Shown here piece after piece: positions 5,433 through 57,297 of a stretch of 64,000 nucleotides of DNA. Under the pieces are notes generated by a model. That model was given only the letters and a program-made list of their open reading frames with translations. It was not told the DNA's origin and did not search any database. This DNA is from Anaerolineae bacterium. GTDB taxonomy: Bacteria; Chloroflexota; Anaerolineae; B4-G1; SLSP01. The position numbers were made by a program, and so were the translations under genes. The stretch lies in the NCBI GenBank assembly GCA_035420085.1, contig DAOLUH010000003.1:80106-144105 (forward strand), in the 5' to 3' direction. Within the stretch, counting starts at the first letter, position 1. Each line of letters begins with the position of its first letter.

Positions 5433-5468
5433 TGTGTATGCTCCTTTCCTTATATAGGTGTATAGGCG

Positions 5469-8225: not shown

Positions 8226-8247
8226 TAGATAAGTCCTCCTCGAAAGT

Positions 8248-9096: not shown

Positions 9097-9101
9097 CGTC
9101 C

Positions 9102-10439
9102 TTATCCTCGCTTGAAGTAGTGTTGTAGGCTGACCTGCTGTCCGCTGCGCAGATAAATGCTGGCTTCCAGCGTCTGCGGGTACAGCCCCGTCCACTGCAA
9201 ACCGTGACCGGTGTCCTCCCACAGTACATTCACTGCCGGAATGTCGCCTTCCATCTGACGAGAGGGCAATAGCTCAGCGACCTGGCGCACCACGCGGCGA
9301 CGCTGTCCCGCGACGGTGATGCGCTCGATGTACAGCGCCAGGTCGAAGGCGTCCACCAGGTAGCGGGTGATGACGCCGGGGGCCATCCCGGAATCCGCCA
9401 GTTGCCACATCTGCACCACACGGTTGGCGATCTCGTGGACGCCGTTGGAGTGCAATGTGAGCAACTGCCCGTCGTGGCCGGTGTTGGCCGCCATCAGGAC
9501 GGAGCGAATCTCCGCCCCACGCGCTTCGCCGGTGACGATGCGGTCCGGGCGCATCCGCAAGGCGTTGATCACCAGGTCGTCCAGCGTAATGGGGCGTTGG
9601 CCTTCCTCGGTTTCTTCGGTGGTCACCATCGCGATCCAGTTGTCCAGTCCTAACTGGAGTTCCGGGGTATCTTCCACGGTGACCACCCGTTCTTCCGGGG
9701 GGAGCACCGCGCACAGGGCGTTGAGGGTGTTGGTCTTGCCGGAACCGGTTCCGCCAGTGACGATGAGGTTGAGGCGGCCCAGGACACATTCACGCAGGAA
9801 TCCGGCGATGTCAGCGGTGAGCGTCCCTAACCGTACCAGGTCATCCAGCGTGCGGGCGACCAGGCGATGGCGGCGAATGGTCACGGCGACGGGTACGTTG
9901 TCCACCAGCGGTTCCATTACCGCGTTGAGGCGGCTGCCGTCGTTCATCTTGGCGTTGACCCTGGGGTTGGAACGGTCGAAGCGCCGCCCGTGCCGCGCCG
10001 CCACGCGGTCCACCAGCTTCTGCACCTCACGGGCGCTGGCGAAATGCGCGCTGGCGCGGTACATCCCCCGTTCGGCATCGTCCACCCAGATTACGTCCGG
10101 GCCGTTGATCATGATCTCTTCCACGGTCGGTGTGTTGAGGTATGGGGTGATGACACCGTAGCCGAAGATGTCGTACTGCAAGCGCACCACCAGGTCTTCC
10201 AGCGCCTCGGCAAAGGGCCGCCCCTGTTGCACCGCCGCCAGCGCGTGTTCTTCGACCAGGGCGCGCAGCAGTGTCTCGGCCTCGCGTTCCACGTTAGCCG
10301 TAGGCGCGCGCAAGGCTTCCAGGCTGAACTGCCCGGTCAGGCGTTCCCGCGCGGCGGCGAGGAGGCCGGTGTAGGGATCGGGGGCATCCGCAGTCGCTTG
10401 CGCGGCGACCCGTTGGGCAAAGGTCGATGACGCAGCCAT
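9102..10439 (-). CDS. cpaF: CpaF/TadA secretion ATPase
   Basis: Track ORF 9102..10496, trimmed to ATG at 10439 (TAATG overlap with the upstream gene). Walker A 'GGTGSGKTN'. 'RPDRIVTGEARGAE' and 'TGHDG..TLHSN' are typical of the VirB11/CpaF family. Confidence 0.9.
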   Translation of the reverse strand: MAASSTFAQRVAAQATADAPDPYTGLLAAARERLTGQFSLEALRAPTANVEREAETLLRALVEEHALAAVQQGRPFAEALEDLVVRLQYDIFGYGVITPYLNTPTVEEIMINGPDVIWVDDAERGMYRASAHFASAREVQKLVDRVAARHGRRFDRSNPRVNAKMNDGSRLNAVMEPLVDNVPVAVTIRRHRLVARTLDDLVRLGTLTADIAGFLRECVLGRLNLIVTGGTGSGKTNTLNALCAVLPPEERVVTVEDTPELQLGLDNWIAMVTTEETEEGQRPITLDDLVINALRMRPDRIVTGEARGAEIRSVLMAANTGHDGQLLTLHSNGVHEIANRVVQMWQLADSGMAPGVITRYLVDAFDLALYIERITVAGQRRRVVRQVAELLPSRQMEGDIPAVNVLWEDTGHGLQWTGLYPQTLEASIYLRSGQQVSLQHYFKRG

Positions 10440-11239
10440 TACTGTAGTTCCTCCGTCAGTTCGATGTAGATCTGCCACGTTGGCCCAAACGTCCATTTCA
10501 GCGTCTGTCCGGTGACAGAAAACACCTTCAGCGTGGTTTCACCGTCGATCAGAGCCTCGTGGCGGCCCGGATACAGTATCTCTGCCCTGTGTGCGGGCTG
10601 GTGTTTGCTGCCGCGATAGACGCTGAATCCGGCGTATAACGCGGCCTGGTGTACGATGGCGTACACATAGTCCTCGTCCCAATATGACCCCTCCGGGCTG
10701 GCAATACCGCAGACATTCAGATCAGCGGCGATTTCATCTGGCGCTAGACCGGCAGTGAATTGCACGAAGATGTCAGCCACGATGGCCTCCGTGTCTGGAT
10801 CAGGGATCAGGCTATGCCCGGTCACGACCCGCCCATCGGCGGTTTTGATGCGCACTTCACAGTCGAACAGATAACCATACGGGGGTTGCTTACCCTGGTA
10901 CAGGCCGTATTGCGCCAGGAGTTGCTTCTTGCCGACGCGCGTTGGCCGCTGTTCCACATCCGCGCCAGCCTGAGGTGGCGCGGCGGGGGCGGTGAGATCC
11001 TCAGGGATATAGCGGTTGTTCTCCCAGAGCACATCCAATTCAAGTTCCAGTTCGTCTACCGTGCTCACTGCCACCGCCCAGGTGACATTGTCCGCGCCCA
11101 TTTGGACGAAGACGGACTCCGGGGGATAGCCGGCCCGTTTCAGGGTCAATGCCCGTCGCAGCATCTGGGTATGATCCTCTGGCAGGCCGATGCGCTCCGC
11201 GTGTTCGGCTGCGCTTTCCAAAAACAGATTTGTACTCAT
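10439..11239 (-). CDS. protein with only a serine-recombinase 'recombinase' (PF07508-like) DNA-binding domain; no resolvase catalytic domain and no zinc-ribbon domain
   Basis: Track ORF 10439..11497, trimmed to ATG at 11239 (AGGAGAGAGG RBS). 'GKQPPYGYLF...DPDTEAIVADIFVQFTAGLAPDEIAADLNVCGIASPEGSYWDEDYVYAIVHQAALYAGF' matches the PPYGY ... IF..y..G.s...IA..LN..GI.sP.G..W pattern of the large-serine-recombinase recombinase domain. The ~90 N-terminal residues are helical and unrelated to resolvase. Confidence 0.6.
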   Translation of the reverse strand: MSTNLFLESAAEHAERIGLPEDHTQMLRRALTLKRAGYPPESVFVQMGADNVTWAVAVSTVDELELELDVLWENNRYIPEDLTAPAAPPQAGADVEQRPTRVGKKQLLAQYGLYQGKQPPYGYLFDCEVRIKTADGRVVTGHSLIPDPDTEAIVADIFVQFTAGLAPDEIAADLNVCGIASPEGSYWDEDYVYAIVHQAALYAGFSVYRGSKHQPAHRAEILYPGRHEALIDGETTLKVFSVTGQTLKWTFGPTWQIYIELTEELQ

Positions 11240-11271
11240 TGTTCCTCTCTCCTTGTTGTGGTAGTGTTGTT

Positions 11272-12037
11272 CTAAGATTGATGTGCTTCCCGCGTGGGAC
11301 CGAACGTCCATTGCAGCGTGCGTCCGGTGACGGCCAGCACTGCCAACGTGGTTTCCCAGTCGATCAGCGCCTCGTGTTGACCGGGGTACAGCATCCCCGT
11401 CCAGCGCGCCTGCTTGTGGGCGACGTCGTGGTAGACGACGTACCCGGCATACAGCGGCGCGCGGCGCACGATGTCGCGCACGTTGGCTTCGCCCCAACGT
11501 CCGCCAGTGGGACTGGCGCTGCCGCGCTCGTTCAGGTCGGCGGCGATCTTGCGGGGCGACACCCCGTCAATGAACTGTGTGAAGATGTCTTCCACGATGG
11601 CAGCTTGATCCTGATGACGTACAAGGCTGTGCCCGGTCAAGGTTTGCGGTGATGTCTGGGCCGAAGGTGTAGCCGTATGGTGCGGCGCTCCCATTGTGCA
11701 AACCGTACTGCGCGCGGAGGTGCTTGTTGCCGCCCCGCGCCTGCTCGCGTCCGGCTTTGGCTACCGCCTGTGCTCGCGCGGCGGGAACAGGATCACTGTC
11801 GGGGACGTAGGCTTTGCCCTCCCACGCCACACCCAATTCGCGTTCCAGTTCTTCCGGCGTCCGCAGCGCCACCCGCCAGGTGACGTTAGCCGCGCCCATT
11901 TTGTGGCGGATGCGCAGCGGCGTATATCCATTGCGCTTCAGCGCCAATGCCCGGCGCAACATCCCGGTACGACGTTTCGACAAGCCAATGCGCCGCGCGT
12001 GGTCTGCTTCGCGTTCCAAAAAGATACTTGTTGTCAT
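11272..12037 (-). pseudogene. tandem paralog of the recombinase-domain protein, interrupted by a +1 frameshift near 11650
   Basis: Track ORFs 11567..12037 (MTTSIFLEREADHARRIGL...APYGYTFGPDIT) and 11272..11694 (...QTLTGHSLVRHQDQAAIVEDIFTQFIDGVSPRKIAADLNERGSASPTGGRW...) together align end to end with 10439..11239, but in two frames. Confidence 0.55.
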
Positions 12038-12206
12038 TGTTCCTCTCTCCGAAAATAGTTACAGGTTGCAAGTTAAAAGTTGAAAGTTAAAAAATCCGTT
12101 CGTTCCGTGGCCGAATTTACATTATTAGGGCTGTGTCACAGGTTCGGTCACTCGCCTTGTTAGTTGTTGTTGGTTGCTCGTGGTTGGTTGCTGGATTAAG
12201 CGGTTA

Positions 12207-12260
12207 GCTTCCTGCCTCTTGCCTCTTGCCTCTTGCCTCTTGCATCCTGCCTCTTGCCTC
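12207..12260. repeat. degenerate CTCTTGC heptamer tract
   Basis: GCTTCCTGCCTCTTGCCTCTTGCCTCTTGCCTCTTGCATCCTGCCTCTTGCCTC, immediately 3' of cpaE. The same word family recurs at 45247-45354. Confidence 0.7.
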
Positions 12261-13626
12261 ATTTCCCGACGAACACCTGTTGCACCTGCTGCCACAGCCC
12301 CGGCCCTTTGCGGCGGTCGGGCAGTTTGAAGGCCGCCGCATCGCCCTCGATCTGTCCGCCGCGCCCGACCCAGGTGTGGGCCAACAGCGGGAAGAAGCGC
12401 ACCGCCATCGACACAATTGCGTCCGACGTCGGGTTGGGCTTGTCCAGCACGAAGGGCCGTTGCTGGTTGTTGGCGTAGGTGAACAGCGGATCGTAGGGCA
12501 CTTGGGCGAACTTCTTCATCCCGATGCTGGTAATCAAGTCCTTACTGCGGATGCCCGCCTCTTCGCTCCACTGGTTGATGACCAACTCGAACTTGCCGAT
12601 GTCCTCGCCGAAGGTCTGCTTCAGGCGCGGCACGGTCTGTCCGGTGGAGTGGATGTCGGCCAGATCAGGGCGCACCACGGTGAGTACCAGGTCGGCGGCG
12701 TCCAGCGCGGCGAAATGCACGTCGTTGTTGATGTCCGGTCCCAGGTCGATGACCACGAAGTCGTATTGCTTACGCGCCGTGTCGATGATGGCGCGGATCA
12801 GTCCTAGCGTGCGCTGCGGATCGTCGCGGAACACCGGCTGGCCGGCGATGTGCATTGCCGGGATGCCGCTCAGACAATCCAACTTCGAGGCGGACTTGGT
12901 GCCCCACAGTCGCACTTTCGCCTTGAGCGCCTGGGGAGAGCAACTCGCGTTCTTGGTGCGCAGGTAGTCCGGCAGCAAGGCGTTGACCAAGGCGAAGATG
13001 TTGTGCTCCGCTGGCAGGCCCAGGCGGGGGGCGATTGCGCCGCGGGTCATATCCAGGTCCATCAGCAGCGTGTCGCGCTTGGCGACGACACCCAACGCCG
13101 CCGCGAGGTTGATCGCCAGACTGGTCTTGCCCACGCCGCCGCCTGTGCCCCACAAGGCGATCACCAGGCGTTGCCACCCGGCCTCGGCCACGGTGTAGAG
13201 CGTCGGCGTGTCCAGCGGCACGTAGCTGCTGCTGGCGCGTTCGGCGCGCGCCTGGGTGACGGCATTGGGGATCAGTTCCAGCAAGCGCCGCAACTGCGCC
13301 GCGTCGAGGGGCAGCGAGACGTAGCCTTTCATCCCCAGAGCCAGCAGTTCGTCGGTGCGCGATTCCAGCGGGGGCAGCAAGCCGATGCTGGCGATGGGGT
13401 ATGCGTCGAAGTGCAGCAGTTCGCTGACCAGTTCAGGCCGGAAGCCGGGCAAGGTGGGCGAGAGCAGCACGACGTCCGCCTCCATTTCGGTGGCGTCGCT
13501 GAACACGCCGGAAGCCGTGGTCGGCCCGGCGACGATTTGCATTTCCGGCATATCCGACAAGGCGCGTTCCAGGCTATGCGCGTCGTCCCATACCTTTGTG
13601 CCGATGACGATTTTGATGCGTTCCAT
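12259..13626 (-). CDS. cpaE: CpaE/TadZ-like protein (receiver-like N-domain + ParA/MinD ATPase)
   Basis: 455 aa. Deviant Walker A 'WGTGGGVGKTSLAINLAAAL'. N-terminal CheY-like fold pattern. Tad context. Confidence 0.8.
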   Translation of the reverse strand: MERIKIVIGTKVWDDAHSLERALSDMPEMQIVAGPTTASGVFSDATEMEADVVLLSPTLPGFRPELVSELLHFDAYPIASIGLLPPLESRTDELLALGMKGYVSLPLDAAQLRRLLELIPNAVTQARAERASSSYVPLDTPTLYTVAEAGWQRLVIALWGTGGGVGKTSLAINLAAALGVVAKRDTLLMDLDMTRGAIAPRLGLPAEHNIFALVNALLPDYLRTKNASCSPQALKAKVRLWGTKSASKLDCLSGIPAMHIAGQPVFRDDPQRTLGLIRAIIDTARKQYDFVVIDLGPDINNDVHFAALDAADLVLTVVRPDLADIHSTGQTVPRLKQTFGEDIGKFELVINQWSEEAGIRSKDLITSIGMKKFAQVPYDPLFTYANNQQRPFVLDKPNPTSDAIVSMAVRFFPLLAHTWVGRGGQIEGDAAAFKLPDRRKGPGLWQQVQQVFVGK

Positions 13627-13773
13627 GTAGTTCTCCCTTTGTTGTTTTTTTTCGAGGCGGGGGTGAGAGCGGAGGGCTGAGGACGTGATGGGGAGGAAGG
13701 TGCGCTTCCTGTCACCCTCTCACCTTGTCACCCTCTCTCCCTGTCTATCTCCCGCTCTCCCCCAATCTCTCAC

Positions 13774-14724
13774 TTACCGCGTCACTTGTTCAGTGAGTAG
13801 CGCCTCGATATCGCGTCCCGCCCAGAACGTCGCGTTGAAGTCTTCCCACGCGAAGCCCGGGGTCTCCGGCAAGGCTTGTCCGGCGTCCACGGCGGCGCGC
13901 CAGACGGCGGGCCGTACCGCGAGGGACATCTTCCCGTTGAACACCGCCCAATCCAGGCTCTCGGCAGTGGTCTCGGGGACGAGGACGTCCACGCCCACCA
14001 CCGGCCCGGCGATAAACGGTGCGGGTTGGGGTTGCCCATCGGCGGTCACCGCCCCATACTGCGGGTTGGCGATCTGTTCGTGGTTGACGCGCACCACGAT
14101 GGCCCCCGCCACCACCCGCTTGGTCACCGGCAGTTGCAGCGTGACCGTCACGGGCTGAGTCAACGCCTCGTAGTCGGGCAGCGGCTCCGGTGTGGGCGGG
14201 GGTGGCGTGACCCCGGCGGGCAAGGTCGGCACGGTGCTGGTCGCCAACTCGGTGGCGCGCACTGTGCCTAACGTGGTGTACAAGTCCACCAGGTCGCCGA
14301 CCGCGATGTACGGGGTGCTTTCGGCGTCCACCGGGATAGACTTGATGACCAACTGCGGATCGGTGAGGGCCAGCGCCAGACGGCGCACTTTCTGCGCGTT
14401 CTCACCGGTGGCGATGCGCCCTCGGTTGAGCACGTCGCCTGCGCGGACCGTCTCGACGAAGACCCCGTCGGCCAGCATCGCTTGCAGCGTCTCCGGCGTG
14501 AGGACGACTTGCAGCAACGACGCGCTGAACGACTGCTTGTCCAGCGCGATGTAGCCGTTGGCGTAGGCATCTTGTAGCGCCGTGTACGCCGGAATGTCCT
14601 GCACTGCAATGGCAACTTCGTAGGTGGGCGGGGTGGTGAGTTGCGCGAACAACAGCACCCCCACGAACGCGCCCCCGACGAGCAGCAGGCCGACCCAGAA
14701 TTGAATGGATTTCAAGATACGCAT
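13774..14724 (-). CDS. cpaB: CpaB/RcpC-like Flp pilus assembly protein
   Basis: 316 aa. N-terminal TM helix, then a SAF-like segment 'AIAVQDIPAYTALQDAY'. Tad context. Confidence 0.75.
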   Translation of the reverse strand: MRILKSIQFWVGLLLVGGAFVGVLLFAQLTTPPTYEVAIAVQDIPAYTALQDAYANGYIALDKQSFSASLLQVVLTPETLQAMLADGVFVETVRAGDVLNRGRIATGENAQKVRRLALALTDPQLVIKSIPVDAESTPYIAVGDLVDLYTTLGTVRATELATSTVPTLPAGVTPPPPTPEPLPDYEALTQPVTVTLQLPVTKRVVAGAIVVRVNHEQIANPQYGAVTADGQPQPAPFIAGPVVGVDVLVPETTAESLDWAVFNGKMSLAVRPAVWRAAVDAGQALPETPGFAWEDFNATFWAGRDIEALLTEQVTR

Positions 14725-14744
14725 TTCGTTTGTCTCCTTGTTTT

Positions 14745-14834
14745 GAGTTGTCAGTTTTCAGTTATCGGTTTTCAGTAGGTCAGTTTTTGCGCAGTGGCTT
14801 GCCGGCTGACGACTGAAAACTGACGACTGATAAC
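14745..14834. repeat. imperfect inverted repeat built from CTGAAAACTGA / CTGACNACTGA words
   Basis: GAGTTGTCAGTTTTCAGTTATCGGTTTTCAGTAGGTCAG (14745-14783) against GCTGACGACTGAAAACTGACGACTGATAAC (14805-14834). Related to 8378-8412. Confidence 0.65.
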
Positions 14835-15340
14835 TTCTTCTTTACGCCCAACGTTTCCTCCGCAATGACTTGCGCTGCGGCCTTGAGGTCGCCGAGGACG
14901 GCGTGGGCCTGCGGCCACTGTTGTTTGAGGCGGCGTTCGTGCCATTGGGCGACCGGATTATCGGCGCTGACGATGAGCACCAGGCTGGCCGCGTCCACCA
15001 ATGCTGGCGGCGGGGTCGTTCCTCCATCGGCAATGATATTTCCCAACAACGTGGCGTTCCACACGAAGGCCATCACCGGGGTACGCCACACGGCGCAAGC
15101 GGGGGTCCACAACAATGGTTGCCGCGTCTCGACGGCTTGCTCGACCGCGTACCCACGACGGCTGACTGTCCACTGCGCGGTCAGTCCCAGGTCGAGCACC
15201 GGCGCGCCGGGGCCGGTCATATCCAGCGCCAGCGTGCCATCAGCGGCATCCAGCGGGACGGCGCTGGCCTGCCGGCACAGGTATTGCGCCAAGGTCGTCG
15301 TCCCGATGCCGCCCTTCGCACCCACCACGAGGATCAGCAT
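14780..15340 (-). CDS. small ParA/MinD-like P-loop protein
   Basis: 186 aa. 'MLILVVGAKGGIGTTTLAQYL' is a deviant Walker A. Overlaps the upstream gene by 7 nt. The C-terminal residues (LSVVSFQ...) are read from an intergenic-type repeat. Confidence 0.5.
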   Translation of the reverse strand: MLILVVGAKGGIGTTTLAQYLCRQASAVPLDAADGTLALDMTGPGAPVLDLGLTAQWTVSRRGYAVEQAVETRQPLLWTPACAVWRTPVMAFVWNATLLGNIIADGGTTPPPALVDAASLVLIVSADNPVAQWHERRLKQQWPQAHAVLGDLKAAAQVIAEETLGVKKKLSVVSFQSSAGKPLRKN

Positions 15341-16065
15341 TGGGCTGCCTCCTGGGAGGGCGTTGGTAAAGTGATGCCTAACAGCCGGGCTATGTCGTTC
15401 TCAGATAACGGCCTATCCACGACGATCCAACGCGCGGGGAACGCCCGTCGCTCGCGTCCGCCGTCCACCAGGATGGCGTTGTAGCTGACACGCGCATCGT
15501 CCAAGACTAGATCCGGGTATATGGTAATCCTGCCGCTGCTTGCCGGTTGGTCGGACGGGGTAAGGTCTAGGAGCAGGTAGGGATCACCGCGTTGTGCGGC
15601 ATCGTAGAGGGCGACGCTTTTGCCTTGCGCGGCCAGCAGTTTGGCGGCGGTGACCACGGCGGTCGTTGTGCCTGTCCCGCCGCGTGTGCCATAGAAGCCG
15701 AGACGTAGTTGGCGTGGGATGGGTGCAAAGGGCAACCGTGGGGTTGTCGCGGTAGTAGCGGAGGCCGGCGTGGTCGGTTGCGCCGGTGGTTGCTGGGGCG
15801 CTTGCGCTTCCAGGTACGCGGTCAGGACCTCGGCGGCCTCCTTTTCCGGGACAGGCAATACTGGAATGCTGAGTTTTTCAACGTCGGGAATCTCTGTCCC
15901 TTCCAGGGTAACGATCAGGTTGGCATCAACGAACTTTAGCATTTGCCGCGTCTTTTGCGGGTCGCAAATACCGACGACCAGCACGTCCGGTACGGCGGTT
16001 ACAGCGTCGCTCAGGGCTGCGGCCTGGGCTTCTTTGGGGGCGACACAGAGTACGTTGGTATGCAT
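15334..16065 (-). CDS. receiver-like + degenerate P-loop protein (second CpaE-like)
   Basis: 243 aa. N-terminal CheY-like pattern, Pro/Thr/Ala-rich linker, then 'LGFYGTRGGTGTTTAVVTAAKLLA'. Start abuts the stop of the upstream gene (TAAATG). Confidence 0.45.
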   Translation of the reverse strand: MHTNVLCVAPKEAQAAALSDAVTAVPDVLVVGICDPQKTRQMLKFVDANLIVTLEGTEIPDVEKLSIPVLPVPEKEAAEVLTAYLEAQAPQQPPAQPTTPASATTATTPRLPFAPIPRQLRLGFYGTRGGTGTTTAVVTAAKLLAAQGKSVALYDAAQRGDPYLLLDLTPSDQPASSGRITIYPDLVLDDARVSYNAILVDGGRERRAFPARWIVVDRPLSENDIARLLGITLPTPSQEAAQC

Positions 16066-16668
16066 TTAGTCCTCCACGGTGAAAGCGTTGGATGTGATTG
16101 GTTGGGTGCCGGGTATCCGCGCGGTCAGGCGCAGGGGCGCGGCGTAGGCTGGGCTGACGTCGAAGACCAGGTAGCCTGTGGCTTGTGCGTTGGGCGGCAA
16201 GGTTTGATCTGAGAGCGGAGCGGTGTCCGTCAAAGCTGGCCCTTCGACTACGCTCAGGGCCGGCCCTTCGGCCACGCTGAGAGCGAGTTCTGCGGCTTGC
16301 GCGCGGGAGTAGCTGTGCCCGGCGCTGTCGGCCAGAGTGAACTCGGCCTGGGATAGATCAAGGCGCATACTGCCCGTGTTCTGCACCTCGGCCACGACGA
16401 CGATGAACACGCCGGCGGGCTGAGCAGACAGATTCAGGCCCAAGGGGTGCGTCAGGGTCACGGCGCTGCTTGCCGTGGGCGGTGCGACGTACGTGGCGGT
16501 GTACGCCCGCGTGACGCGCAGTTGCCCTGCCGAGGGTGTCGCCGTGGCAACCACCACCGGACGCACCGGCAGCGGCTCGATGGGTAACGGCAAGATCGAA
16601 AAGATGTTGCAGCCCAGGGGCAGCCCTAGCCCGACACTGATCCCTATGATTTTGACGATGTGATGCAT
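16066..16668 (-). CDS. lipoprotein with DUF4352-like Ig-fold domain; first gene of the Tad operon
   Basis: Track ORF 16066..16695. Likely start is ATG at 16668 (MHHIVKIIGISVGLGLPLGC, lipobox-like). 'VFIVVVAEVQNTGSMRLDLSQAEFTLADSAGHSY...ATGYLVFDV' fits the DUF4352 pattern. Confidence 0.5.
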   Translation of the reverse strand: MHHIVKIIGISVGLGLPLGCNIFSILPLPIEPLPVRPVVVATATPSAGQLRVTRAYTATYVAPPTASSAVTLTHPLGLNLSAQPAGVFIVVVAEVQNTGSMRLDLSQAEFTLADSAGHSYSRAQAAELALSVAEGPALSVVEGPALTDTAPLSDQTLPPNAQATGYLVFDVSPAYAAPLRLTARIPGTQPITSNAFTVED

Positions 16669-16691
16669 CTTCCTAACCCCTTTTGACGCAA

Positions 16692-16845
16692 ACAAAAAAG
16701 GGGAGGACCTGGAACCGAAGTTCCAAGTCCTCCCCTTTCATTTCCTGGCCAGGATACCTAGTCAGGACGCCGCAGGCTTGAAGGCTTCCTGCGGATCGGA
16801 GCGTTTAGCCCCAGACCTTTTCACGGTGGTTGAGCACCGTTATAT
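16692..16845 (-). ncRNA. candidate ~150-nt structured 5' leader or sRNA (copy 1), unknown class, ending in an intrinsic terminator ~25 nt before the Tad operon start codon
   Basis: Minus-strand RNA has three hairpins: ACGGTG-ctcaac-CACCGT, GGGGC-taaac-GCTCC and CCGCAGG-aagccttcaag-CCTGCGG. It ends in a terminator GGGGAGGACyTGGAAC-ttcg-GTTCCAGGTCCTCCCC followed by TTTTTT (plus-strand 16694-16735). Homologous to 31108-31265, with stems preserved and loops differing. Confidence 0.45.
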
Positions 16846-16849
16846 GGTT

Positions 16850-16877
16850 ATTATACATGGCGGACATGCAAAATCAA
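16850..16877 (-). promoter_or_regulatory. sigma70-type promoter of leader copy 1
   Basis: Minus strand reads CCCCCCTTGATT (-35 TTGATT, plus coordinates 16872-16877), a 16-nt spacer, then TATAAT (16850-16855). Confidence 0.45.
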
Positions 16878-16954
16878 GGGGGGTAACGCGATGAATTTCC
16901 GAATTTCGCATATAAAACTTAGCAGCGCAGCAGAGGTGGGTAGCGAACGTTATT

Positions 16955-17050: not shown

Positions 17051-18319
17051 ATGTTGAGTCAGATGATGACACACAAAGCATCCCCAGCACCAGCCTATAC
17101 CCAACGCAGTTTGGAACTGCGCGCGGCGGAGTATTATGCCAGTATACGCAAGCCACAGAGCGACTGGAAGTCTATTGAAGACTTAACACCACAACTGGCG
17201 GAGTTTGAACATTTGACACATGCAAAAAAATACGATTCGGCAGCGAGAGTATTAAGGAAAATTGACTTCAACTATCTCGACCTATGGGGATACCATGCCT
17301 ATTTGGCTGCGATGCGAGAAAAATTACTAGGACATATAACAGACGTTGGCGCTCAGGCATACAATTTCGGTAGTCTGGGACGTATTTATCACATTTTGGG
17401 AGAGACCGGGCAAGCTATCGATCTTTATGAGCAAGCACTAACTATTGTTCGAAGGATGAATAATCGGCGTTGGGAAAGCGCCTGGTTAGGAAATTTGGGC
17501 CATGCAAGTTATGATTTGGGACGGATTCAATGGGCCCAGGATCAACTTACTCGGGCTGTAATTCTTGCTCAAGAGGCTAGAAACCACCAAGGTGAAGCCA
17601 CCTGGCTCAATTATCTGGCAAATGTTTACCGTGCTTTGGGAGAACTACGACAAGCTGTCGCGTATTATGAGCAGGCTTTGAATATTGTGGGTGAAATAAG
17701 TGACCGTCGTAGAGAATGTCTTATCTTCAGTGACTTAGCGCGAGCTTACTACAGTTTGGGACAGGCTGAACAGATTGTTTCTTGCTGTGAGAAAGGCTTG
17801 ATTATTGCCCGAGAAATTGGTTATCACTATGGAGAAAGCTGTTGCCTTGTTGGTCTAGCAAAAGGGTCCCTCTTGCTAGGTGACTTCTACAGAGTCCAGC
17901 AATGCTGTACTGAATCTCTGGTTTTGGGTTATCCAGAAAGTAATTATCAAGCAGCATTATTGTGGGGTATTGGTCTTCTGCATCAGCAAGATCTATGTGC
18001 TCGTAATGTCTTTGTTGATGCAATCACACATTGTTTGGTTGTTCTAGATAAAACAGAAGATATGTTTGAAGTTCGTTACCTTTTGGCACTAGCTCTTGTC
18101 GGTCAAGCCGTCTGCGCCCCTTACTGGCCTGATCTTAGCCAGCGTACTGTCCTTCTTGCTCCCGCGCTGACCGAATATCGCCACGCCCTTAACATCACCG
18201 CTGCTCCTGGTGTTGTCAGCAATGCGCTACGCGACCTGGAACTCATCCGCGCGGCGGGTATCGAGGGCCTGGAGCCAGTTTTTGACCTCCTGGAAGGAGC
18301 GTTGCATGAGCAGTTCTAA
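17051..18319 (+). CDS. TPR-repeat protein, paralog 1 of 5 (STAND sensor-like module without NTPase)
   Basis: 422 aa. N-module 'YTQRSLELRAAEYYASIRKPQSDWKSIEDLTPQLAEFEHL', then TPR units (YEQAL.I.R......E...LGNLG..Y..LG). C-module 'ITAAPGVVSNALRDLELIRAAGIEGLEPVFDLLEGAL'. Confidence 0.85.
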   Translation: MLSQMMTHKASPAPAYTQRSLELRAAEYYASIRKPQSDWKSIEDLTPQLAEFEHLTHAKKYDSAARVLRKIDFNYLDLWGYHAYLAAMREKLLGHITDVGAQAYNFGSLGRIYHILGETGQAIDLYEQALTIVRRMNNRRWESAWLGNLGHASYDLGRIQWAQDQLTRAVILAQEARNHQGEATWLNYLANVYRALGELRQAVAYYEQALNIVGEISDRRRECLIFSDLARAYYSLGQAEQIVSCCEKGLIIAREIGYHYGESCCLVGLAKGSLLLGDFYRVQQCCTESLVLGYPESNYQAALLWGIGLLHQQDLCARNVFVDAITHCLVVLDKTEDMFEVRYLLALALVGQAVCAPYWPDLSQRTVLLAPALTEYRHALNITAAPGVVSNALRDLELIRAAGIEGLEPVFDLLEGALHEQF

Positions 18320-19841
18320 TTCCTACACCTGGCGCTCCTTGGAACTACGTGCAGCGGAGTATTATGCCCATATCTGCAAACCGGAGAGCGAGTGGAAAAC
18401 GCTTGGGGATTTAGCGCCTCAATTGGTAGAATTTGAACATTTGGTGAAAGCCGGTGCCTATGATGCGGCGTGCCAAGTCCTGGACAGTATAGATACCACC
18501 CACTTGTTCATATGGGGATATTATGCACTGCTTGTAGGAATGCGAAAAGCCTTGGTAGGAGAGATTCAGTTGTTGGCTTTACAGCTCAATAACTTCGAAG
18601 GGATGGCCAATGCTTTAAGAGTATTGGGAGAGTTGCAATCGGCCATTGCCCACTATGAACAAGGATTAACTCTAGCGCGTCACATCAGGGATCGGTCAAG
18701 AGAGGGAAAATTGCAAGGAAACCTGGGAAGTGCATATTGGGCATTAGGACAATATGAAAAGGGTCTAGCTTCTTATGAAAGTGCTTTAGCGATAGCAAGT
18801 GAAACAGGGGATCGGTGGGAAGAGTGCAAACAACTTAGCCGTTTGGGACGCACCTCCTATCAATTAGGATATTTTGCACAAGCCGTCATGTATCATGAAA
18901 AAGCTCTCACGATTGCTCGTGAAATCAGGAATCGTCAATGGGAAGGGTACATTTCAGGAGCACTAGGCAATATCCGGCGTGCTTTAGGGCAATTCGAAGC
19001 AGCACGTACCCTCTATGAAACAGCTTTGGCAATTGCGTACAAGACGGGGGAGCGCCGTGAAGAAGGTGTGCGTCACTGGAGTTTAGGGCGTCTCTACCAT
19101 GATCTGGGGCATCCTGAAAAAGCGTTGACCTTTTATGAGATAGCACTTCGGTTCAGTCGTGATACAGCAGCTCGAGTGGAAGAACAGAAAGTTCTCGGAA
19201 GTATAGGCGACATCTATCTTGATCTTGAAGATTATACACAAGCTCTAGATTACTACCAAAAGGCCCTGACGATCAATCAGGAAATTGGTTATCGAAGAGG
19301 TCAAGGATATCGTCTGTTGGGGCTACTAAAGGCTAAACTGGCAATTGGAGATTTCGCAGAAGTCCAACATTTGGAATCAGTGGCTATGTCATTCAAGATT
19401 CTTGAAGTTGATTATCACATCCAATTAATTCTGGGAATTGCTTATCTGTATCAGAATACCATGAAAGCATCCGAGTATATCGCCGGTGCTGTCACACAGA
19501 GTCAGGGATTGTTAGCAAAGAGTCGAGGGTTGTATGCTCCTCAATATGCTCTGGGCACTGCTCTGGTTGGTCAAGCTGCGTGCGATCCTCGCTGGCCTGA
19601 CTCCAACCAACACACTGTCTTGCTTGCTTCCGCTTTGGCAGAATACCGTCGTGCTCTTGATATCACCTCGGCTCCCGGTGTTGTCCGCGATGCGCTTCAC
19701 GATCTGAAACTGATCCGTGCTGCCGGCATCGACGGCCTGGAACCGGCATTTGCCTTGTTAGAACAAGCCATAGCTGATTGGCAATCCTTACCGGGTGACG
19801 CTTTACCGTCGCCCACGAGCTTACAGGAGGATACCGTATGA
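18306..19841 (+). CDS. TPR-repeat protein, paralog 2 of 5
   Basis: Track ORF 18210..19841, trimmed to ATG at 18306 (MSSSNSYTWRSLELRAAEYYAH...); 14-nt overlap with paralog 1. C-module 'ITSAPGVVRDALHDLKLIRAAGIDGLEPAFALLEQAI'. Confidence 0.85.
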   Translation: MSSSNSYTWRSLELRAAEYYAHICKPESEWKTLGDLAPQLVEFEHLVKAGAYDAACQVLDSIDTTHLFIWGYYALLVGMRKALVGEIQLLALQLNNFEGMANALRVLGELQSAIAHYEQGLTLARHIRDRSREGKLQGNLGSAYWALGQYEKGLASYESALAIASETGDRWEECKQLSRLGRTSYQLGYFAQAVMYHEKALTIAREIRNRQWEGYISGALGNIRRALGQFEAARTLYETALAIAYKTGERREEGVRHWSLGRLYHDLGHPEKALTFYEIALRFSRDTAARVEEQKVLGSIGDIYLDLEDYTQALDYYQKALTINQEIGYRRGQGYRLLGLLKAKLAIGDFAEVQHLESVAMSFKILEVDYHIQLILGIAYLYQNTMKASEYIAGAVTQSQGLLAKSRGLYAPQYALGTALVGQAACDPRWPDSNQHTVLLASALAEYRRALDITSAPGVVRDALHDLKLIRAAGIDGLEPAFALLEQAIADWQSLPGDALPSPTSLQEDTV

Positions 19842-21637
19842 CCACACCAAGTTTGACCCAGCATCTCAGCCCGTTGCGCCAGGTACTGGCTGCGCAGTTG
19901 ACCGCCGATGACTTGAGCACACTCTGCTTTGACTTGGGCCTGGATTATGACGCACTACCGGCTCAAGAGCAAGGCCACAAGGCACGCGAGTTGCTCAAGC
20001 GCATAGTCCAAGACGATCGTGTCTATGAATTGGTGAGTGCTGGCAAGTCTATTCGCCCTGATGTGACCTGGGATGCAGCCATTGCCGCCTGGTCGCAGGC
20101 GCAGCTAGATGCGGATATGACCTGGTGGCGCGCCAAGCGTGACTGGGATGACGCCGACCGCCGCGAGCGGCGTGAACGGCAGCGCGTGGTCAATGTCCGC
20201 CCTCTGGACGTCACACACACCTTCAAGGATCGTGTGCGCGAGGCCCTGGCATTGCGTGAACACCTAACCGATGGCACAGTGCGTCTAGTTAGTGTGGTAG
20301 GGCGCGGAGGAATGGGAAAGACGGCATTGGTCAGCCACGTGCTGGCCGACCTGGAAGAGATGATTACGCCCGTTGCTGAAGCTGTGCCGGATAAACGACC
20401 GGCGGGAATTCCACCTGCGCTTTACAGTCGCCTGCGCGCGGCCTTGCAGACGTGCGGAGCGTTCGACAGTGACGCGGCCTTGCGTGCTATCTTTGTAGAT
20501 GCGCGACTGGCTCCCTGGCAGAGCCAAATCCCTGAAGCAGATAGCGTCTTTGCCCGTATTCAGCGGACAATTGCCTTCCTGTTTGCGCACACGGCTGATG
20601 CTTCTGGACATCCAGAAAATGCGCTGGCGTTGTTACTGCACGTTCTGAGCGAACAAACGGAAACCGGGGATGCCAATCAGCGTCGTTTACTAGAACTGGC
20701 GGAGGAACTTGTGGCATTGACCAAGACGCCGACCGAAACGCTATCTGGGGCACAGGACGGGACAGCCGCGCAACCGGTGGATGGGATACTCTACCTGAGT
20801 GCGCGTAGCACGGGACTGAGCCTGGAACGCATTTACACGGATGTGGGACGGATGTTGGGCGATCCCGTAGCAAGTCGCCTGGCAGCGCGGTGGGCTGACC
20901 GCGACACACCATTGGCCGCCAAGGTGGAGTACCTGCTGGAAACGTTGCAAGAAGGTGTATATGTCATCTTGCTCGATAACCTGGAAGATGTGTTGGGTGA
21001 CGATAATGCCATTCAGGAAGAAGGACTGCGGCTCTTCGTAGAACGCTGTATGCTACAACCGGGTGGGGCGCGGTTGATTACGACCTCGCGGGAGCAGGTC
21101 TCCGTGGCGCCGGCGGCGGTGCGGAGTGCGCGGCACATCCCCCTGCGAGAAGGGCTGCCGGAAGATGATGCTGTAGCCTTGCTGCGCGACTTCGACAGCG
21201 ACGGTCGCCTGGGATTGCGTGACGCACCGGAAGCCGATTTGCGCCGGGCAGTACAGCTTACGCAAGGCATCCCGCGCGCATTGGAGATCCTGGCCGGCAT
21301 CCTGGATCGGGATCCAACGCAGACGTTGAGCGAGTTATTGGCCGATGAAACTGTCTTTGGTGAACAAGTGATGGAGAGCTTGATTGCCGCCGGATACGAA
21401 CGTTTGGGTGAAGACGAACGGCGTGTGTTGGAAGCGTTGGCTGTTTTCAATCGACCTGTGGATGCTACCGCAATTGCGTTCCTGCTGCAACCCTGGTTCC
21501 CTGCATTGGATGTGCGCACCAGTCTGCGGCGGTTGGTCAACAGCTACTTCGTGACTTTTAACCGGGCGACGGGTGAGTACAGCTTGCATCCGATGGATCG
21601 CGAGTATATGTACCGGCGGATTCCAGAGGAAGCGTGA
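19838..21637 (+). CDS. NB-ARC-type STAND NTPase with a small N-terminal helical (EAD/death-like) domain and no repeat sensor
   Basis: 599 aa. N-terminus 'LRQVLAAQLTADDLSTLCFDLGLDYDALPAQEQGHKARELLKRIVQDDRVYELV'. Walker A 'VSVVGRGGMGKTALVSHVL'. Walker B 'VYVILLDNLEDV'. 'LITTSRE' and a winged-helix-like end '...YSLHPMDREYMYRRI'. About 150 aa are inserted between Walker A and Walker B. 4-nt overlaps with both neighbours. Confidence 0.85.
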   Translation: MTTPSLTQHLSPLRQVLAAQLTADDLSTLCFDLGLDYDALPAQEQGHKARELLKRIVQDDRVYELVSAGKSIRPDVTWDAAIAAWSQAQLDADMTWWRAKRDWDDADRRERRERQRVVNVRPLDVTHTFKDRVREALALREHLTDGTVRLVSVVGRGGMGKTALVSHVLADLEEMITPVAEAVPDKRPAGIPPALYSRLRAALQTCGAFDSDAALRAIFVDARLAPWQSQIPEADSVFARIQRTIAFLFAHTADASGHPENALALLLHVLSEQTETGDANQRRLLELAEELVALTKTPTETLSGAQDGTAAQPVDGILYLSARSTGLSLERIYTDVGRMLGDPVASRLAARWADRDTPLAAKVEYLLETLQEGVYVILLDNLEDVLGDDNAIQEEGLRLFVERCMLQPGGARLITTSREQVSVAPAAVRSARHIPLREGLPEDDAVALLRDFDSDGRLGLRDAPEADLRRAVQLTQGIPRALEILAGILDRDPTQTLSELLADETVFGEQVMESLIAAGYERLGEDERRVLEALAVFNRPVDATAIAFLLQPWFPALDVRTSLRRLVNSYFVTFNRATGEYSLHPMDREYMYRRIPEEA

Positions 21638-23130
21638 AAGATAAGCAGGCTTTCAACAGTGAGCCGATGTCGTACACACGCCAGGCTCTAGAATTGCGTG
21701 CGGCGGATTACTATGCCAGTATACGTAAGCCGGAGTATGAGTGGAAATCTATCGAGGATTTGATCCCGCAACTTACACAGTTCAGACATCAGGTGTGTGC
21801 GTTAGATTACGAAGGCGCTAGTCAAACTCTCCGGGCAATCGATTATGATTACCTCTACCTTTGGGGGTATTACGCACGACTGATCGACTTACACAGCCAA
21901 TTGTTGGGGAACCTGCAAACTCCTCGTCTGGTGATGGATAACCTCGTTGGTCTGGGACGTGTTTGTCGCGCTACCGGCAAATTTACTCAGGCAGTTACAT
22001 ACTACGAAAAGGCTTTGGATGTTGGCGGCACAATCGATGACTCATATAGAAAAAGTGTGCTGTTTGGCCACTTGGGTAGCGTGTATCGTGCTTTGGGCAA
22101 GATCAAACAGGCTATTGAGTTCTACGAGCAGGCTTTAACACTGGCCCTGGAGGTCGCGGATCGCCGTTTACAATGTGATCAACTTGGACACCTGGGGATG
22201 TGTTACCGAAGTCTCGGCGCAATGCACCAAGGTATCCAGTATCATCAGCAGGCTCTCGCCATTGCGCGGGAGATCGGCAATCGTGCTCTGGAAGGTGCCA
22301 ACCTGAGTAGCCTTGGCAGCGCTATGCGCGCGATCGGTAAAATCGAGGAATCTTTGATTTACTACCGACAGGCTCTAGATATTGCGCGACAAACCCGCGA
22401 CCGGCGTGTTGAGGGCTTTGCTTTATCCAGTATGGGCGGTGCGTATCGAGCCTTGGGCGACATCAACTATGCTATTGAATGTTACAGGCAGGCGCTTGAA
22501 ATAGCGCGTGAAACCGGTTATCGCCAAGGAGAGGCGATAGACCTGGGCGACATAGCCAGTGTTTACTACACGTTAGGCAAATATGACCAGGCGCTAGAGT
22601 TGTATGAGCAAGCTCTCAAGATCAGTAGTGAGATAGGGGACTCCCGGCAAGTTGGATATCATCTCGTTGGCCTTGGCAAAACCTGGTTGGCAATGGGACC
22701 CTATTCCAGAGCCATCGACTGTTTTAGGCAATCACTCGACGTGGGCTTACCGGATTCAGCTTACCGTGCGGCATTGGGATTGGCTGTGACCTATCTGACA
22801 CTTGGAAAACCTGAAGCTGCAGCCGCGTTTGGGGACGCGATAGTCCGTAGTAGAGTGCTATTGGATAAAACCCAGGATAATTACCGGGCGTTATATGCAC
22901 TTGCTACTGCCAAGGTAGGCGTTGCCATCTGCGACCCACTTTGGAACAATGTCCGTAGACGCGCCGATCTTCTAGCCCCTGCATTGGATAAGTATCGGCG
23001 GGCTTTGGAAATCACCGCTATGCCTGGTGTTGTACGGGATGCCTTGCGCGACCTCGAACTCATCCGCGCTGTTGGCGTTGAGGGCCTGGAACCAGTGTTT
23101 GCACTCCTGGAAGGGGGATTGAATGGATAG
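21634..23130 (+). CDS. TPR-repeat protein, paralog 3 of 5
   Basis: 498 aa. 'YTRQALELRAADYYASIRKPEYEWKSIEDLIPQLTQFRHQ' ... 'ITAMPGVVRDALRDLELIRAVGVEGLEPVFALLEGGL'. Start overlaps the NTPase stop. Confidence 0.85.
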   Translation: MKDKQAFNSEPMSYTRQALELRAADYYASIRKPEYEWKSIEDLIPQLTQFRHQVCALDYEGASQTLRAIDYDYLYLWGYYARLIDLHSQLLGNLQTPRLVMDNLVGLGRVCRATGKFTQAVTYYEKALDVGGTIDDSYRKSVLFGHLGSVYRALGKIKQAIEFYEQALTLALEVADRRLQCDQLGHLGMCYRSLGAMHQGIQYHQQALAIAREIGNRALEGANLSSLGSAMRAIGKIEESLIYYRQALDIARQTRDRRVEGFALSSMGGAYRALGDINYAIECYRQALEIARETGYRQGEAIDLGDIASVYYTLGKYDQALELYEQALKISSEIGDSRQVGYHLVGLGKTWLAMGPYSRAIDCFRQSLDVGLPDSAYRAALGLAVTYLTLGKPEAAAAFGDAIVRSRVLLDKTQDNYRALYALATAKVGVAICDPLWNNVRRRADLLAPALDKYRRALEITAMPGVVRDALRDLELIRAVGVEGLEPVFALLEGGLNG

Positions 23131-24844
23131 TCCCGATCCTTACAATCGCCGTAACCTGGAACTGCGAGTAGCGGAATACTACGCCAGTATTCGCAAGCCA
23201 GAGAGCGAGTGGAAGACGATTGAGGATTTGACCGCACTATTATCGGAAGTCGAACATCGTTTCTGTGGCGGTGACTGTGATGGCATGGCCAGGTTGCTGG
23301 ATTTGATTGATGTTGATTACTTATTCTTATGGGGATATCATCATCACTTGATTAGACTGCGCGAACAACTGATCAATTGTCACATCGAACCACGTTTGCA
23401 GGTTCAGAACTTAGGTCGATTGGGACGCATAGCGCACAGCATAGGGCGATTCAATCGAGCAATCGAATATCATCAACAGGCCTTGCGTATTATCGAGGAT
23501 GCCGGTTTGGATGACAATGTGGAAAAATGCAAACATCTGGGTTATCTCGGTACCAATTATCACTTCCAGGGCCAGGCTGGAAAAGCGATTGATTACTATC
23601 AGAGGGCGTTAGCCCTTGCCCGCAGTGTACACGACCGTGGCTTTGAAAGTATCTGGTTGGGCTATTTGGGATACGCTTATCGTATTATCGGAGAGTTGGA
23701 TCAGTCGGTCACTTGCTTGGAACGTGCCTTGCAGATCGCGCGGGTGATAGGTGACCGTCGGGAGGAGCAGCGTCATCTTGGCAACCTGGGTAGCACTTAC
23801 TATGATTTAGGAGAAACGGAAAAGGCCCTAACCTACTATCGTGACGCCGTTGCCATTGCACAAGAACTTGGCTATCGGCGGTATGTTGGAATCTGGCAAG
23901 GGGCTTTGGGTGAAGTGTATCGGGACCTGAGGTATTTAGATCAAGCGATTCGGGTGTGTCAAGAGTCTCTGGCTATAGCTCGAGAGGTTGATGACAGATG
24001 GAGTGAAACCCTCTGGTTACGATCATTAGGTAATGCTTACTATAATGTGGGGCAGTTCGAAGAAGCTATCCGTGTTGCCAACCAGGGGCTTGCGATCGCG
24101 CAGCAGATTGGCGATCGGGTATCAGAAGGCGGACATCTGGGTATCTTGTGCAGAACATATCTGTCGCTTGGATTCAATGATCAAGCATTTGAGTATGGTC
24201 AAAATGCGTTAACCGTGACTCGAAGCACGCATGAACCTCGGAATATGTGTGTTCGACTTTGCGATTTCGGGGCTGTCTGTTTCAGCCTTGAGCAACTCGA
24301 ACTTGCGCTTCAGCATTATACGCAAGCTTTAATCCTCGCCCGTGAGGGAGGTGAACCCTATAAGGTGAGTTATTGCTTGTTGGGAATGGCGAGAGTTTTG
24401 CTTGGTGAAGGGCGCTACAGCGAAGCCGAACCGTACAGTCGCGAAGCTTGCACATTGGATGTGCCAGCAACTAAACATCAAGCAGCTCTAGGTTTGGCCT
24501 TTTCACATCTCTATCAATGCAGTATATCGGCTGTGGAAAGTTTCACGGATGCAATTGCAGAATGTCAGACTATCCTGAATAAAACGCCAACGTTATATAA
24601 GACCCGTTACGTCTTGGCGACTGCGATGGTGGGGCAAGCCGTATGTCACTCAAGATGGGGAAATATTGGCGAAAAGAGAACGTTGTTGGTTCCCGCTCTC
24701 GTCGAATATCGCCGCGCGCTGGACATCACATCTGCCCCTGGCGTCGTGCGTGACGCCCTCCGCGACCTGGAACTCATACGTGCTGCCGGTGTCGAGGGTT
24801 TGGAGCCGGCATTTGAACTGCTGGAAGGTGCGTTGAATGAGTAG
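23123..24844 (+). CDS. TPR-repeat protein, paralog 4 of 5
   Basis: 573 aa. 'YNRRNLELRVAEYYASIRKPESEWKTIEDL' ... 'ITSAPGVVRDALRDLELIRAAGVEGLEPAFELLEGAL'. 8-nt overlap with paralog 3. Confidence 0.85.
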   Translation: MDSPDPYNRRNLELRVAEYYASIRKPESEWKTIEDLTALLSEVEHRFCGGDCDGMARLLDLIDVDYLFLWGYHHHLIRLREQLINCHIEPRLQVQNLGRLGRIAHSIGRFNRAIEYHQQALRIIEDAGLDDNVEKCKHLGYLGTNYHFQGQAGKAIDYYQRALALARSVHDRGFESIWLGYLGYAYRIIGELDQSVTCLERALQIARVIGDRREEQRHLGNLGSTYYDLGETEKALTYYRDAVAIAQELGYRRYVGIWQGALGEVYRDLRYLDQAIRVCQESLAIAREVDDRWSETLWLRSLGNAYYNVGQFEEAIRVANQGLAIAQQIGDRVSEGGHLGILCRTYLSLGFNDQAFEYGQNALTVTRSTHEPRNMCVRLCDFGAVCFSLEQLELALQHYTQALILAREGGEPYKVSYCLLGMARVLLGEGRYSEAEPYSREACTLDVPATKHQAALGLAFSHLYQCSISAVESFTDAIAECQTILNKTPTLYKTRYVLATAMVGQAVCHSRWGNIGEKRTLLVPALVEYRRALDITSAPGVVRDALRDLELIRAAGVEGLEPAFELLEGALNE

Positions 24845-31265: not shown

Positions 31266-31269
31266 ATCT

Positions 31270-57262: not shown

Positions 57263-57297
57263 GGAGAAGACAGCAGATGTACGGCAGTAGATAACAA

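Follow-up and report, generated by a model that had tools for sequence, protein, structure and literature searches.

A Tad-like pilus operon in a 64,000-nucleotide stretch of DNA from an Anaerolineae bacterium (Chloroflexota; contig DAOLUH010000003.1, positions 80,106 to 144,105; hereafter the window, to which all positions refer unless a locus is named) raises the question of why its first gene should be preceded by a module with its own promoter, hairpin-rich leader and intrinsic terminator, and whether this module controls the operon behind it. The original prediction, made from the sequence alone, described a second, homologous module elsewhere in the window and took the arrangement for a riboswitch/attenuator layout of a class it could not name. 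Here, we conclude that the module is a structured RNA family, uncatalogued and narrowly distributed (Anaerolineae/Chloroflexota), and we assign a probability of roughly 0.5 to the reading that it is a cis-acting transcription-attenuation leader. Its anatomy, its conservation and its obligate position upstream of, and co-oriented with, the gene that follows are established by the comparisons below.

Copy 1 lies on the minus strand at ~16694-16883, a slightly different span from the 16692-16877 first proposed, and four hairpins (P1 to P4), not three, precede its terminator. The other elements were found as described: the -35 box, a 16-nt spacer and TATAAT form a promoter with 10 of 12 consensus matches, and the terminator with its T6 run is separated by exactly 25 nt (16669-16693) from the ATG of the DUF4352 gene, leaving no room for a promoter between the two. 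The operon behind it is a genuine Tad-like operon, as had been claimed, since genes for ParA, CpaF/TadA, prepilin peptidase and TadB/C were all found. The terminator has a 20-bp stem (GAAAGGGGAGGACUUGGAAC/GUUCCAGGUCCUCCCCUUUU at 16739-16696) with a UUCG loop, the P3 loop contains an anti-Shine-Dalgarno-like CCUUC, and GUCU in the linker J1/2 can pair with GGAC in the 5' arm of the terminator, forming a candidate helix, P0. The minimum free energy (MFE) of the copy 1 fold was -80.3 kcal/mol (z -7.0), with 0/200 shuffled sequences as stable, and the RNA scored 179.7 bits (E 3.6e-50) against the covariance model R1 described below. The promoter spacer also carries an operator-like palindrome, CATG-N5-CATG (16856-16868, minus strand).

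Copy 2, also on the minus strand (31110-31305), aligned with copy 1 at 79% identity (nhmmer E 1e-63 to 1e-65), and all the elements described for two homologous promoter-leader-terminator modules were present. Its promoter has 11 of 12 consensus matches and an extended -10 element with TG, and its RNA folded with an MFE of -66.6 kcal/mol (z -4.3; 0/200 shuffles as stable). The arms of hairpin 1 (ACGGTG/CACCGT versus CCTGGA/TCCAGG) and the loops of hairpin 2 (TAAAC versus TTCG) differ between the copies with pairing kept, exactly as had been pointed out. The likeness is not complete: P4 is weak in copy 2, and the distance to the downstream open reading frame (ORF) is ~100 nt, not 25. An operator-like palindrome, CCTTGAAATTCAAGG, overlaps the -35 box of this promoter (31287-31301, minus strand). 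The spacer between the terminator and the 132-aa ORF (31040-31100, minus strand) holds three direct repeats, GACAGGWT(Y), and an inverted ATCCTG; this repeat stretch is conserved across orthologous loci and contains a consensus-like possible second promoter, TTGAAC-17-TATCCT.

The original prediction had proposed an Rfam search and a survey of related genomes. With Rfam 15 (4227 models), a cmscan search of the entire window yielded nothing at gathering thresholds, in line with the earlier failure to recognise a known class; at E<=10, each copy gave only resemblances of the terminator hairpin to unrelated microRNA, small nucleolar RNA and small RNA (sRNA) models, far below thresholds. In the literature, we found no Anaerolineae/Chloroflexota leader or Tad-associated RNA of this sort described. 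Relatives were found. A P3-based pattern, scanned against one genome per GTDB species, returned 43 loci, of which 28 were true homologues, all in 12 Anaerolineae/Chloroflexota metagenome-assembled genomes (MAGs) with at most 6 copies per MAG. A scan of metagenomes with a pattern leaving P3 and P4 free added 89 loci from digester, bioreactor and activated-sludge samples, bringing the family to 121 instances (86 unique), with the terminator present in 114. Digester and sludge samples with family members include JGI 3300009689, 3300009773 and 3300033177. Three main types, A, B and C, differ wholly in P1, a position that holds three unrelated stem types across the family; they are also largely different in P4 and in the inner stem of the terminator, and some instances are hybrids between types.

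The covariance model R1 was built from 31 type A sequences, and a five-helix structure was tested on 79 aligned sequences, 78 of them distinct. Among the latter, the proportion of paired cells was 94.9%, compared to 86.6% after shuffling, and the covariation score was 0.234 versus 0.097 for shuffled alignments (0/500 as high) and 0.016-0.066 for slid controls. Eighteen pairs had changed on both sides. All six pairs of P1 covaried, 8 of 9 pairs in P4 had changed on both sides, with more than 50 sequence variants folding alike, and four pairs covaried in the inner terminator. In the main family, on the other hand, no variation was seen in the stems of P2 and P3 or at the base of the terminator (GGGGAGGAC/GUCCUCCCC), and P3 (CCGCAGG-AA(G)CCUYCAAG-CCUGCGG) was nearly invariant even where the search pattern had left it free. 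The invariant G-U pair of P2 and the G-U pairs of P1 function on the module strand only. We also compared orthologous DUF4352 loci, whose hosts are fairly closely related genomes, with the window. Median identity was 0.91 for the RNA and 0.89 for the promoter, compared to 0.84 for the coding sequence, 0.76 for third codon positions and 0.62 for DNA further upstream, indicating purifying selection on RNA and promoter.

Diverged modules were sought upstream of distant homologues of the DUF4352 protein and the 132-aa protein, with the covariance model and by direct reading. In these relatives, P3 itself covaries (GUAGG/CCUAC, CGCGGG/CCCGCG, GCGGG/CCCGC and CUGCGGG/CCCGCAG). What remains is a universal core consisting of a strong promoter, a hairpin with the loop AA(N)CCUNC(C)A(N)G, and a terminator base (A)AAGGGGAGG / CCUCCCCUU. 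All seven variants retained the loop motif and the basal GGGGAGG/CCUCCCC, while the inner stem of the terminator covaried freely and the J1/2 linker was missing in the minimal variants. The link between the module and the DUF4352/Tad genes persisted down to 43% protein identity, despite loss or replacement of P1, P2 and P4. One variant, L133b, lies between the second and third genes of a Tad-like operon and shows a promoter TTGCAT..TGGTATAGT, several hairpins and a terminator GGGGAGGCCC. Together, the covariation in P1, P4 and the inner terminator across the family, and in P3 among distant relatives, supports at the sequence level what two copies had first suggested, namely that the module is a selected RNA structure.

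The genomic setting was compared next. In about 100 of the 109 instances with downstream DNA, the next feature was a co-oriented gene from one of about seven recurrent families: the 132-aa membrane protein (35 instances, type B; in the window, a gene for a 1338-aa serine-rich-like protein comes after it), the DUF4352 protein and Tad operon (28, type A), 73-97-aa proteins of three related families (~26, followed by an Arc-like repressor), a 177-aa coiled-coil-like protein (7) and a 203-aa secreted/membrane-like protein (5, type C). Each module paralogue stays with its own gene across species, and the order promoter, leader, terminator and gene on one strand is retained in distant orthologues too. 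For DUF4352/Tad and the small-protein genes, the gap between module and gene is 24-30 nt. Recurrent ORF clusters on the opposite strand are probably antisense shadows of the downstream genes. Two modules have other neighbours, an ISL3-like transposase gene behind one (L016) and a 1094-aa N6-methylase/restriction-modification-like gene behind another (L035, which lacks the canonical terminator); both arrangements look like secondary disruptions of original loci. The one module found to have no co-oriented downstream gene is an orphan (L027), which scores lowest of the full copies.

Table. Positions and characteristics of the modules and associated genes in the window, and of the diverged variants (for L133b, positions within locus L133).
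Feature	Position	Strand	Characteristics
Copy 1 promoter	16850-16883	-	C-run; -35 TTGATT at 16877-16872; -10 TATAAT at 16855-16850
Copy 1 RNA (type A)	16694-16845	-	~150 nt; presumed start near 16843-16845, end at T-run
Copy 1 P1 hairpin	16823-16840	-	ACGGUG/CACCGU; sequence variable, pairing kept
Copy 1 J1/2 linker	16813-16822	-	GAAAAGGUCU; conserved, single-stranded
Copy 1 P2 hairpin	16798-16812	-	GGGGC-UAAAC-GCUCC; stem invariant including G-U pair, loop variable
Copy 1 P3 hairpin	16770-16794	-	CCGCAGG-AAGCCUUCAAG-CCUGCGG; universal core element
Copy 1 P4 hairpin	16743-16767	-	Sequence variable, pairing kept
Copy 1 intrinsic terminator	16694-16739	-	GAAAGGGGAGGAC..GTCCTCCCC + T6; T-run ends at 16694
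Spacer and first Tad-operon gene	16066-16693	-	DUF4352 protein, 200 aa; ATG at 16668-16666
Remainder of Tad-like operon	6436-16065	-	Pfam scans
Three genes after DUF4352 gene		-	No Pfam family above cut-off
CpaE/TadZ-like ParA	12259-13626	-	Pfam
Split serine recombinase	10439-12037	-	Two ORFs, 156 aa and 352 aa; Pfam Recombinase, PHROG integrase
CpaF/TadA ATPase	9102-10496	-	Pfam
Prepilin peptidase	8378-9229	-	Pfam
TadB/C	7341-8261, 6436-7344	-	Pfam
Copy 2 promoter	31270-31305	-	C-run; TTGAAA-18-TGgTATAAT at 31299-31270
Copy 2 RNA (type B)	31109-31255	-	T5 at 31114-31110; R1 94 bits, E 3.9e-25
Copy 2 P1 hairpin	31236-31260	-	
Copy 2 P2 hairpin	31211-31224	-	UUCG loop
Copy 2 P3 hairpin	31184-31207	-	Loop AACCUCCAAG
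Copy 2 P4 hairpin	31156-31181	-	Weak
Copy 2 terminator	31110-31152	-	Hairpin with one A-C mismatch + T5
Copy 2 spacer and gene	30609-31108	-	~100-nt spacer, then 132-aa putative membrane-protein ORF; ATG at 31007
Degenerate third copy	57292-57418	-	P4-like part and homologous terminator only; between convergent genes
Type D (L136, L139, L140, L142)			Without P2; P3 GUAGG-AAACCUUCACG-CCUAC
Type E (L141)			Only P3, CGCGGG-AACCUCCACG-CCCGCG, and terminator
L133a (L133)			GCAGG-AACCUCCAUG-CCUGC and terminator
L133b (L133)	5264-5451	+	Inside Tad-like operon; GCGGG-AAUCCUACCAG-CCCGC and terminator
L145			CUGCGGG-ACCUACCG-CCCGCAG and terminator

The attenuation reading starts from this spacing. With a gap of 24-30 nt and no other promoter, the downstream operon would depend on read-through of the terminator, which is the behavior of an attenuator. 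The strong, near-consensus promoter would fire and RNA polymerase would transcribe P1-P4; by default, the very stable terminator would halt the polymerase 25 nt short of the Tad operon, releasing the ~150-nt RNA, and the operon would be expressed only upon read-through. Control of read-through would probably lie with the P3 hairpin and its loop AA(N)CCUNC(C)A(N)G, the element common to all variants. In the version that we prefer, CCUYC of the P3 loop would pair with GGAGG at the base of the 5' arm of the terminator, giving an H-type pseudoknot (L1 short, AA(N); connecting strand A-rich) that would block the base pairs adjoining the U-tract. A trans factor, protein or small ligand, would recognise the invariant P2-P3 core and stabilise or oppose this pairing; such a factor seems necessary because the terminator is so stable. 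One device might in this way co-regulate the Tad operon, the 132-aa membrane protein with its giant serine-rich neighbor, and a few other small gene sets. In modelled loop-to-arm duplexes, the energies ranged from -5 to -9.5 kcal/mol and, for types A, B and L133a, were more favorable than those of 96-99% of shuffled loops. Pairing between loop and terminator base would explain why both segments are invariant while the inner stem drifts. P0, in which GUCY of J1/2 pairs with GGAC of the 5' arm, is a second candidate pairing and would close a P2/P3/P4 junction.

Several observations weigh against attenuation or against the pairing proposed for it. In types D, L133b and L145, shuffled loops formed duplexes as good as that of the P3 loop, CCUAC loops yield an A-G mismatch, and the terminator (20 bp, ~-40 kcal/mol) far exceeds any alternative pairing. 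Neither the pseudoknot nor P0 shows covariation, because the partners are invariant, and P0 comprises only 4-6 bp and is missing in minimal variants. Promoter, 3' end and read-through are all sequence predictions, and no candidate regulator protein was identified. Type B modules lie ~100 nt from their gene, with a possible separate promoter in between, and the type B RNA could be an independent unit. Finally, an 80%-identical orthologue of the 132-aa protein (L146 1157-1772, L147 884-1499) has no module; there it sits after a 68-aa ORF within an operon. No classical antiterminator overlapping an aptamer helix was conserved across the family. We hold it doubtful that the switch is a terminator-base pseudoknot of the P3 loop (mimicking the 16S anti-Shine-Dalgarno sequence) that senses a ligand or protein and represents an Anaerolineae-specific riboswitch or antiterminator class.

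Other routes to control were tried and rejected. A leader peptide was discarded since many copies carry ACA, AUA or ACG in place of the AUG in GGAAAUGAAAGGGG, and types A and B have no start codon at a usable distance from GGAGG. Sequestration of the downstream ribosome-binding site in cis by the P3 loop found, by inspection, complementarity of only 4-5 nt that was uncorrelated with loop type. A CUUGGA element pairing with the loop UCCAAG proved inconsistent, being located inside the terminator in type A, after it in type B, and missing in hybrids. Finally, an extension of P0 was dismissed, as J1/2 and the bases that follow GGAC correlate along lineage lines, without compensation in hybrids.

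The alternative we take most seriously, though we still consider it rather unlikely, is that the modules are stand-alone sibling sRNAs that act in trans, each as its own gene, with the upstream position reflecting history or mere co-regulation; the C/U-rich P3 loop (ACCUCC / CCUUC, anti-Shine-Dalgarno-like) could pair with target ribosome-binding sites, or the RNA could sponge a protein. By sequence prediction, every module indeed has a full promoter and an efficient terminator, a single MAG can have as many as 6 copies, and the conserved single-stranded C/U-rich loop in a hairpin recalls known anti-Shine-Dalgarno sRNAs. Minimal variants reduced to hairpin and terminator, the orphan module, and the space for, and consensus match to, a separate promoter in type B all fit as well. 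An sRNA gene would not, however, be expected to lie directly upstream of, and co-oriented with, members of a few gene families (about 100 of the 109 instances), with paralogues faithful to their genes across species, nor would it leave the Tad operon without another promoter, as the 24-30 nt gap does. The orphan copy is moreover the most degenerate, with a decayed counterpart in the window, and inspection revealed no extended complementarity of the loop to downstream ribosome-binding sites. A small-molecule riboswitch, which would bind c-di-GMP or another second messenger at a P2-P3-P4 junction closed by P0 and act as an ON switch, appears less probable still. The layout and gene context suggest a surface/adhesion regulon, and J1/2, the P2 stem and P3 are invariant in types A-C while P1 and P4 vary. 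Folds truncated before the 3' arm of the terminator give a GUCY:GGAC closing helix worth 3-4 kcal/mol, and AGGUCY in J1/2 copies AGGUCC in that arm. Yet no Rfam riboswitch model, GEMM-I and c-di-GMP-II included, matched either copy at E<=10 with lax filters. The closing helix lacks covariation, is reduced to two wobble pairs in L136/L142, and is absent from minimal variants, which keep P3 and terminator upstream of the same operon. The hairpins are serial without a conserved junction, and relatives do without P2 and P4, an unusual freedom for a ligand pocket. A metabolite riboswitch would be a special case of the cis model, weakened by this dispensability. Of the original prediction, the attenuator-like layout stood, being kept in about 100 of 109 instances, whereas nothing indicates a ligand-binding riboswitch, and its c-di-GMP guess is left with gene context alone. 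Serial hairpins with one invariant hairpin fit an attenuator controlled by a protein or pseudoknot, or an sRNA, at least as well as a metabolite aptamer.

Two further explanations were weighed. The module could be an unregulated device, in which a strong promoter and a leaky terminator set a low, constant ratio of mRNA to short RNA, or in which the hairpins only stabilise the 5' end or insulate the operon and the short RNA is a by-product. This is in keeping with the fact that no conserved switching structure was proven, and with a palindromic terminator, flanked by an A-run and a T-run, that acts in both directions in L027 and at 57.3 kb in the window. Stability or insulation would not require an invariant P3 loop and stem, J1/2 and terminator base, however, and the retention of P3 through large divergence would go unexplained; we regard this option as improbable. 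It is highly improbable that the module is a mobile repeat, a phage or plasmid cassette, or a protein-binding site at the DNA level. Pointing that way are its multiple copies, with more than 85% identity between species, assembly breaks within it (L023, L029, L144), palindromes in its promoters, and genes for an Arc-like repressor and a recombinase near some loci. Against this, phage, plasmid and viral-contig collections contained zero matches, the module has no terminal inverted or direct repeats, homology begins exactly at the promoter, paralogues are each syntenic with their own gene, and compensatory changes and strand-specific G-U pairs point to selection at the RNA level. What we favor over these alternatives remains attenuation in cis.

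Searches of the window and 1.16 Mb of fetched loci by nhmmer, covariance model and hairpin-motif scan found only two full copies and one remnant in the window, and revealed no unsuspected minimal modules. The remnant is the degenerate third copy at 57.3 kb (nhmmer E 1.4e-5; covariance model 21.6 bits, E 5.6e-4), the terminator remnant of a module that in the orthologous place in L027 is complete and likewise stands between convergent genes. It sits 3' of a 936-aa ORF whose C-terminus is a hydrophobic stretch followed by RRK. Among the neighboring genes, the 1338-aa ORF 3' of the copy 2 gene (26523-30539, minus strand) has no Pfam domain and matches NCBIfam ser_rich_anae_1 below threshold (318 bits; cut-off 650). 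The serine recombinase is inserted between the CpaE-like and CpaF-like genes of the Tad operon, near a (GCAAGAG)n repeat at ~12200-12260, and a 148-nt intergenic stretch of this operon (13627-13775, minus strand), purine-rich and then pyrimidine-rich, forms a long hairpin with imperfect pairing (-52 kcal/mol, z about -3). Divergent from copy 1, six genes on the plus strand (17051-26468) encode five TPR proteins and one NB-ARC/STAND NTPase (19838-21637), which also has bDLD1 (bacterial Death-like) and EAD7 effector-associated domains; the cluster is conflict-system-like. In a PHROGs scan, the neighboring genes yielded an Arc-like repressor, an integrase-like fragment, two sub-significant matches and nothing else. 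In other genomes, some type A modules are followed by a gene for an Arc-like repressor (L022), and no homologues of other module-associated genes (the MVKAKTE-type small protein, the Arc-like protein and others) were present in the window.

Filamentous and mostly uncultured, the Anaerolineae abound in digesters, sludge and sediments, and how they regulate their genes is scarcely known. Through the module, a few envelope genes and the Tad pilus operon are linked in a putative regulon. Should the module prove to act as a conditional attenuator, it would offer a handle on the control of adhesion and filament behavior, and would add an orphan RNA class with an invariant hairpin loop and an invariant terminator base; if it belonged to a pseudoknot-switch class, one signal would turn on the Tad pilus together with a cell-envelope regulon. 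The covariance model and alignment can be used for annotating the family in metagenomes. While the kind of element, attenuator leader or sRNA, is familiar, the RNA family itself is new.

Among known systems, the Chloroflexi-1 RNA motif (RF01698) is likewise a structured RNA candidate from the same phylum, known only from Chloroflexus aggregans (Weinberg et al. 2010, PMC2864571). Its model misses both module copies even at E<=10. The order of parts in the module is that of type III toxin-antitoxin loci (ToxIN), in which a promoter, a short structured RNA, a terminator and an ORF follow one another and the terminator sets the ratio of RNA to protein; the module, however, precedes the Tad operon and membrane proteins rather than an endoribonuclease toxin, and a type III system was rejected, as Tandem Repeats Finder detected no repeats inside either module. 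Sibling anti-Shine-Dalgarno sRNAs, such as the streptococcal csRNAs, Listeria LhrC and RoxS/RsaE, also occur in several near-identical copies with their own promoter and Rho-independent terminator and with a C/U-rich loop complementary to GGAGG. Such sRNAs are not known to be bound to a gene of the same orientation 25 nt further on, whereas about 100 of 109 module copies are followed by a co-oriented gene; the positional independence from a specific downstream gene that marks such sRNAs is not seen here.

Processive antitermination relies on leader elements such as the HK022 put RNA, lambda nut/boxB, LoaP-dependent leader hairpins and EAR. As in these, a sequence-specific hairpin that does not overlap the terminator lies between a strong promoter and the terminator, ahead of long surface-structure operons; unlike them, the modules have no NusG paralogue or N-like protein seen adjoining them and no similarity to EAR in Rfam. 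Pseudoknot-based transcriptional ON riboswitches, with folds of the fluoride/crcB, preQ1 and SAM-II type, resemble the proposed arrangement in that a loop would pair with the downstream 5' strand of the terminator across an A-rich connecting strand, but the pseudoknot of the module is predicted at only 5 bp, without covariation, and its terminator is far stronger. In Clostridioides difficile, the type IV pilus gene pilA1 is reportedly preceded by a class II c-di-GMP riboswitch. Unlike the c-di-GMP riboswitches (RF01051, RF01786), the module has no GEMM match, its hairpins are serial, and it occurs in multiple copies before several gene sets. On the assumption that the host is monoderm, what it shares with them is a structured leader and terminator placed before a type IV-filament or Tad pilus operon, for whose expression read-through would, as proposed here, be needed.

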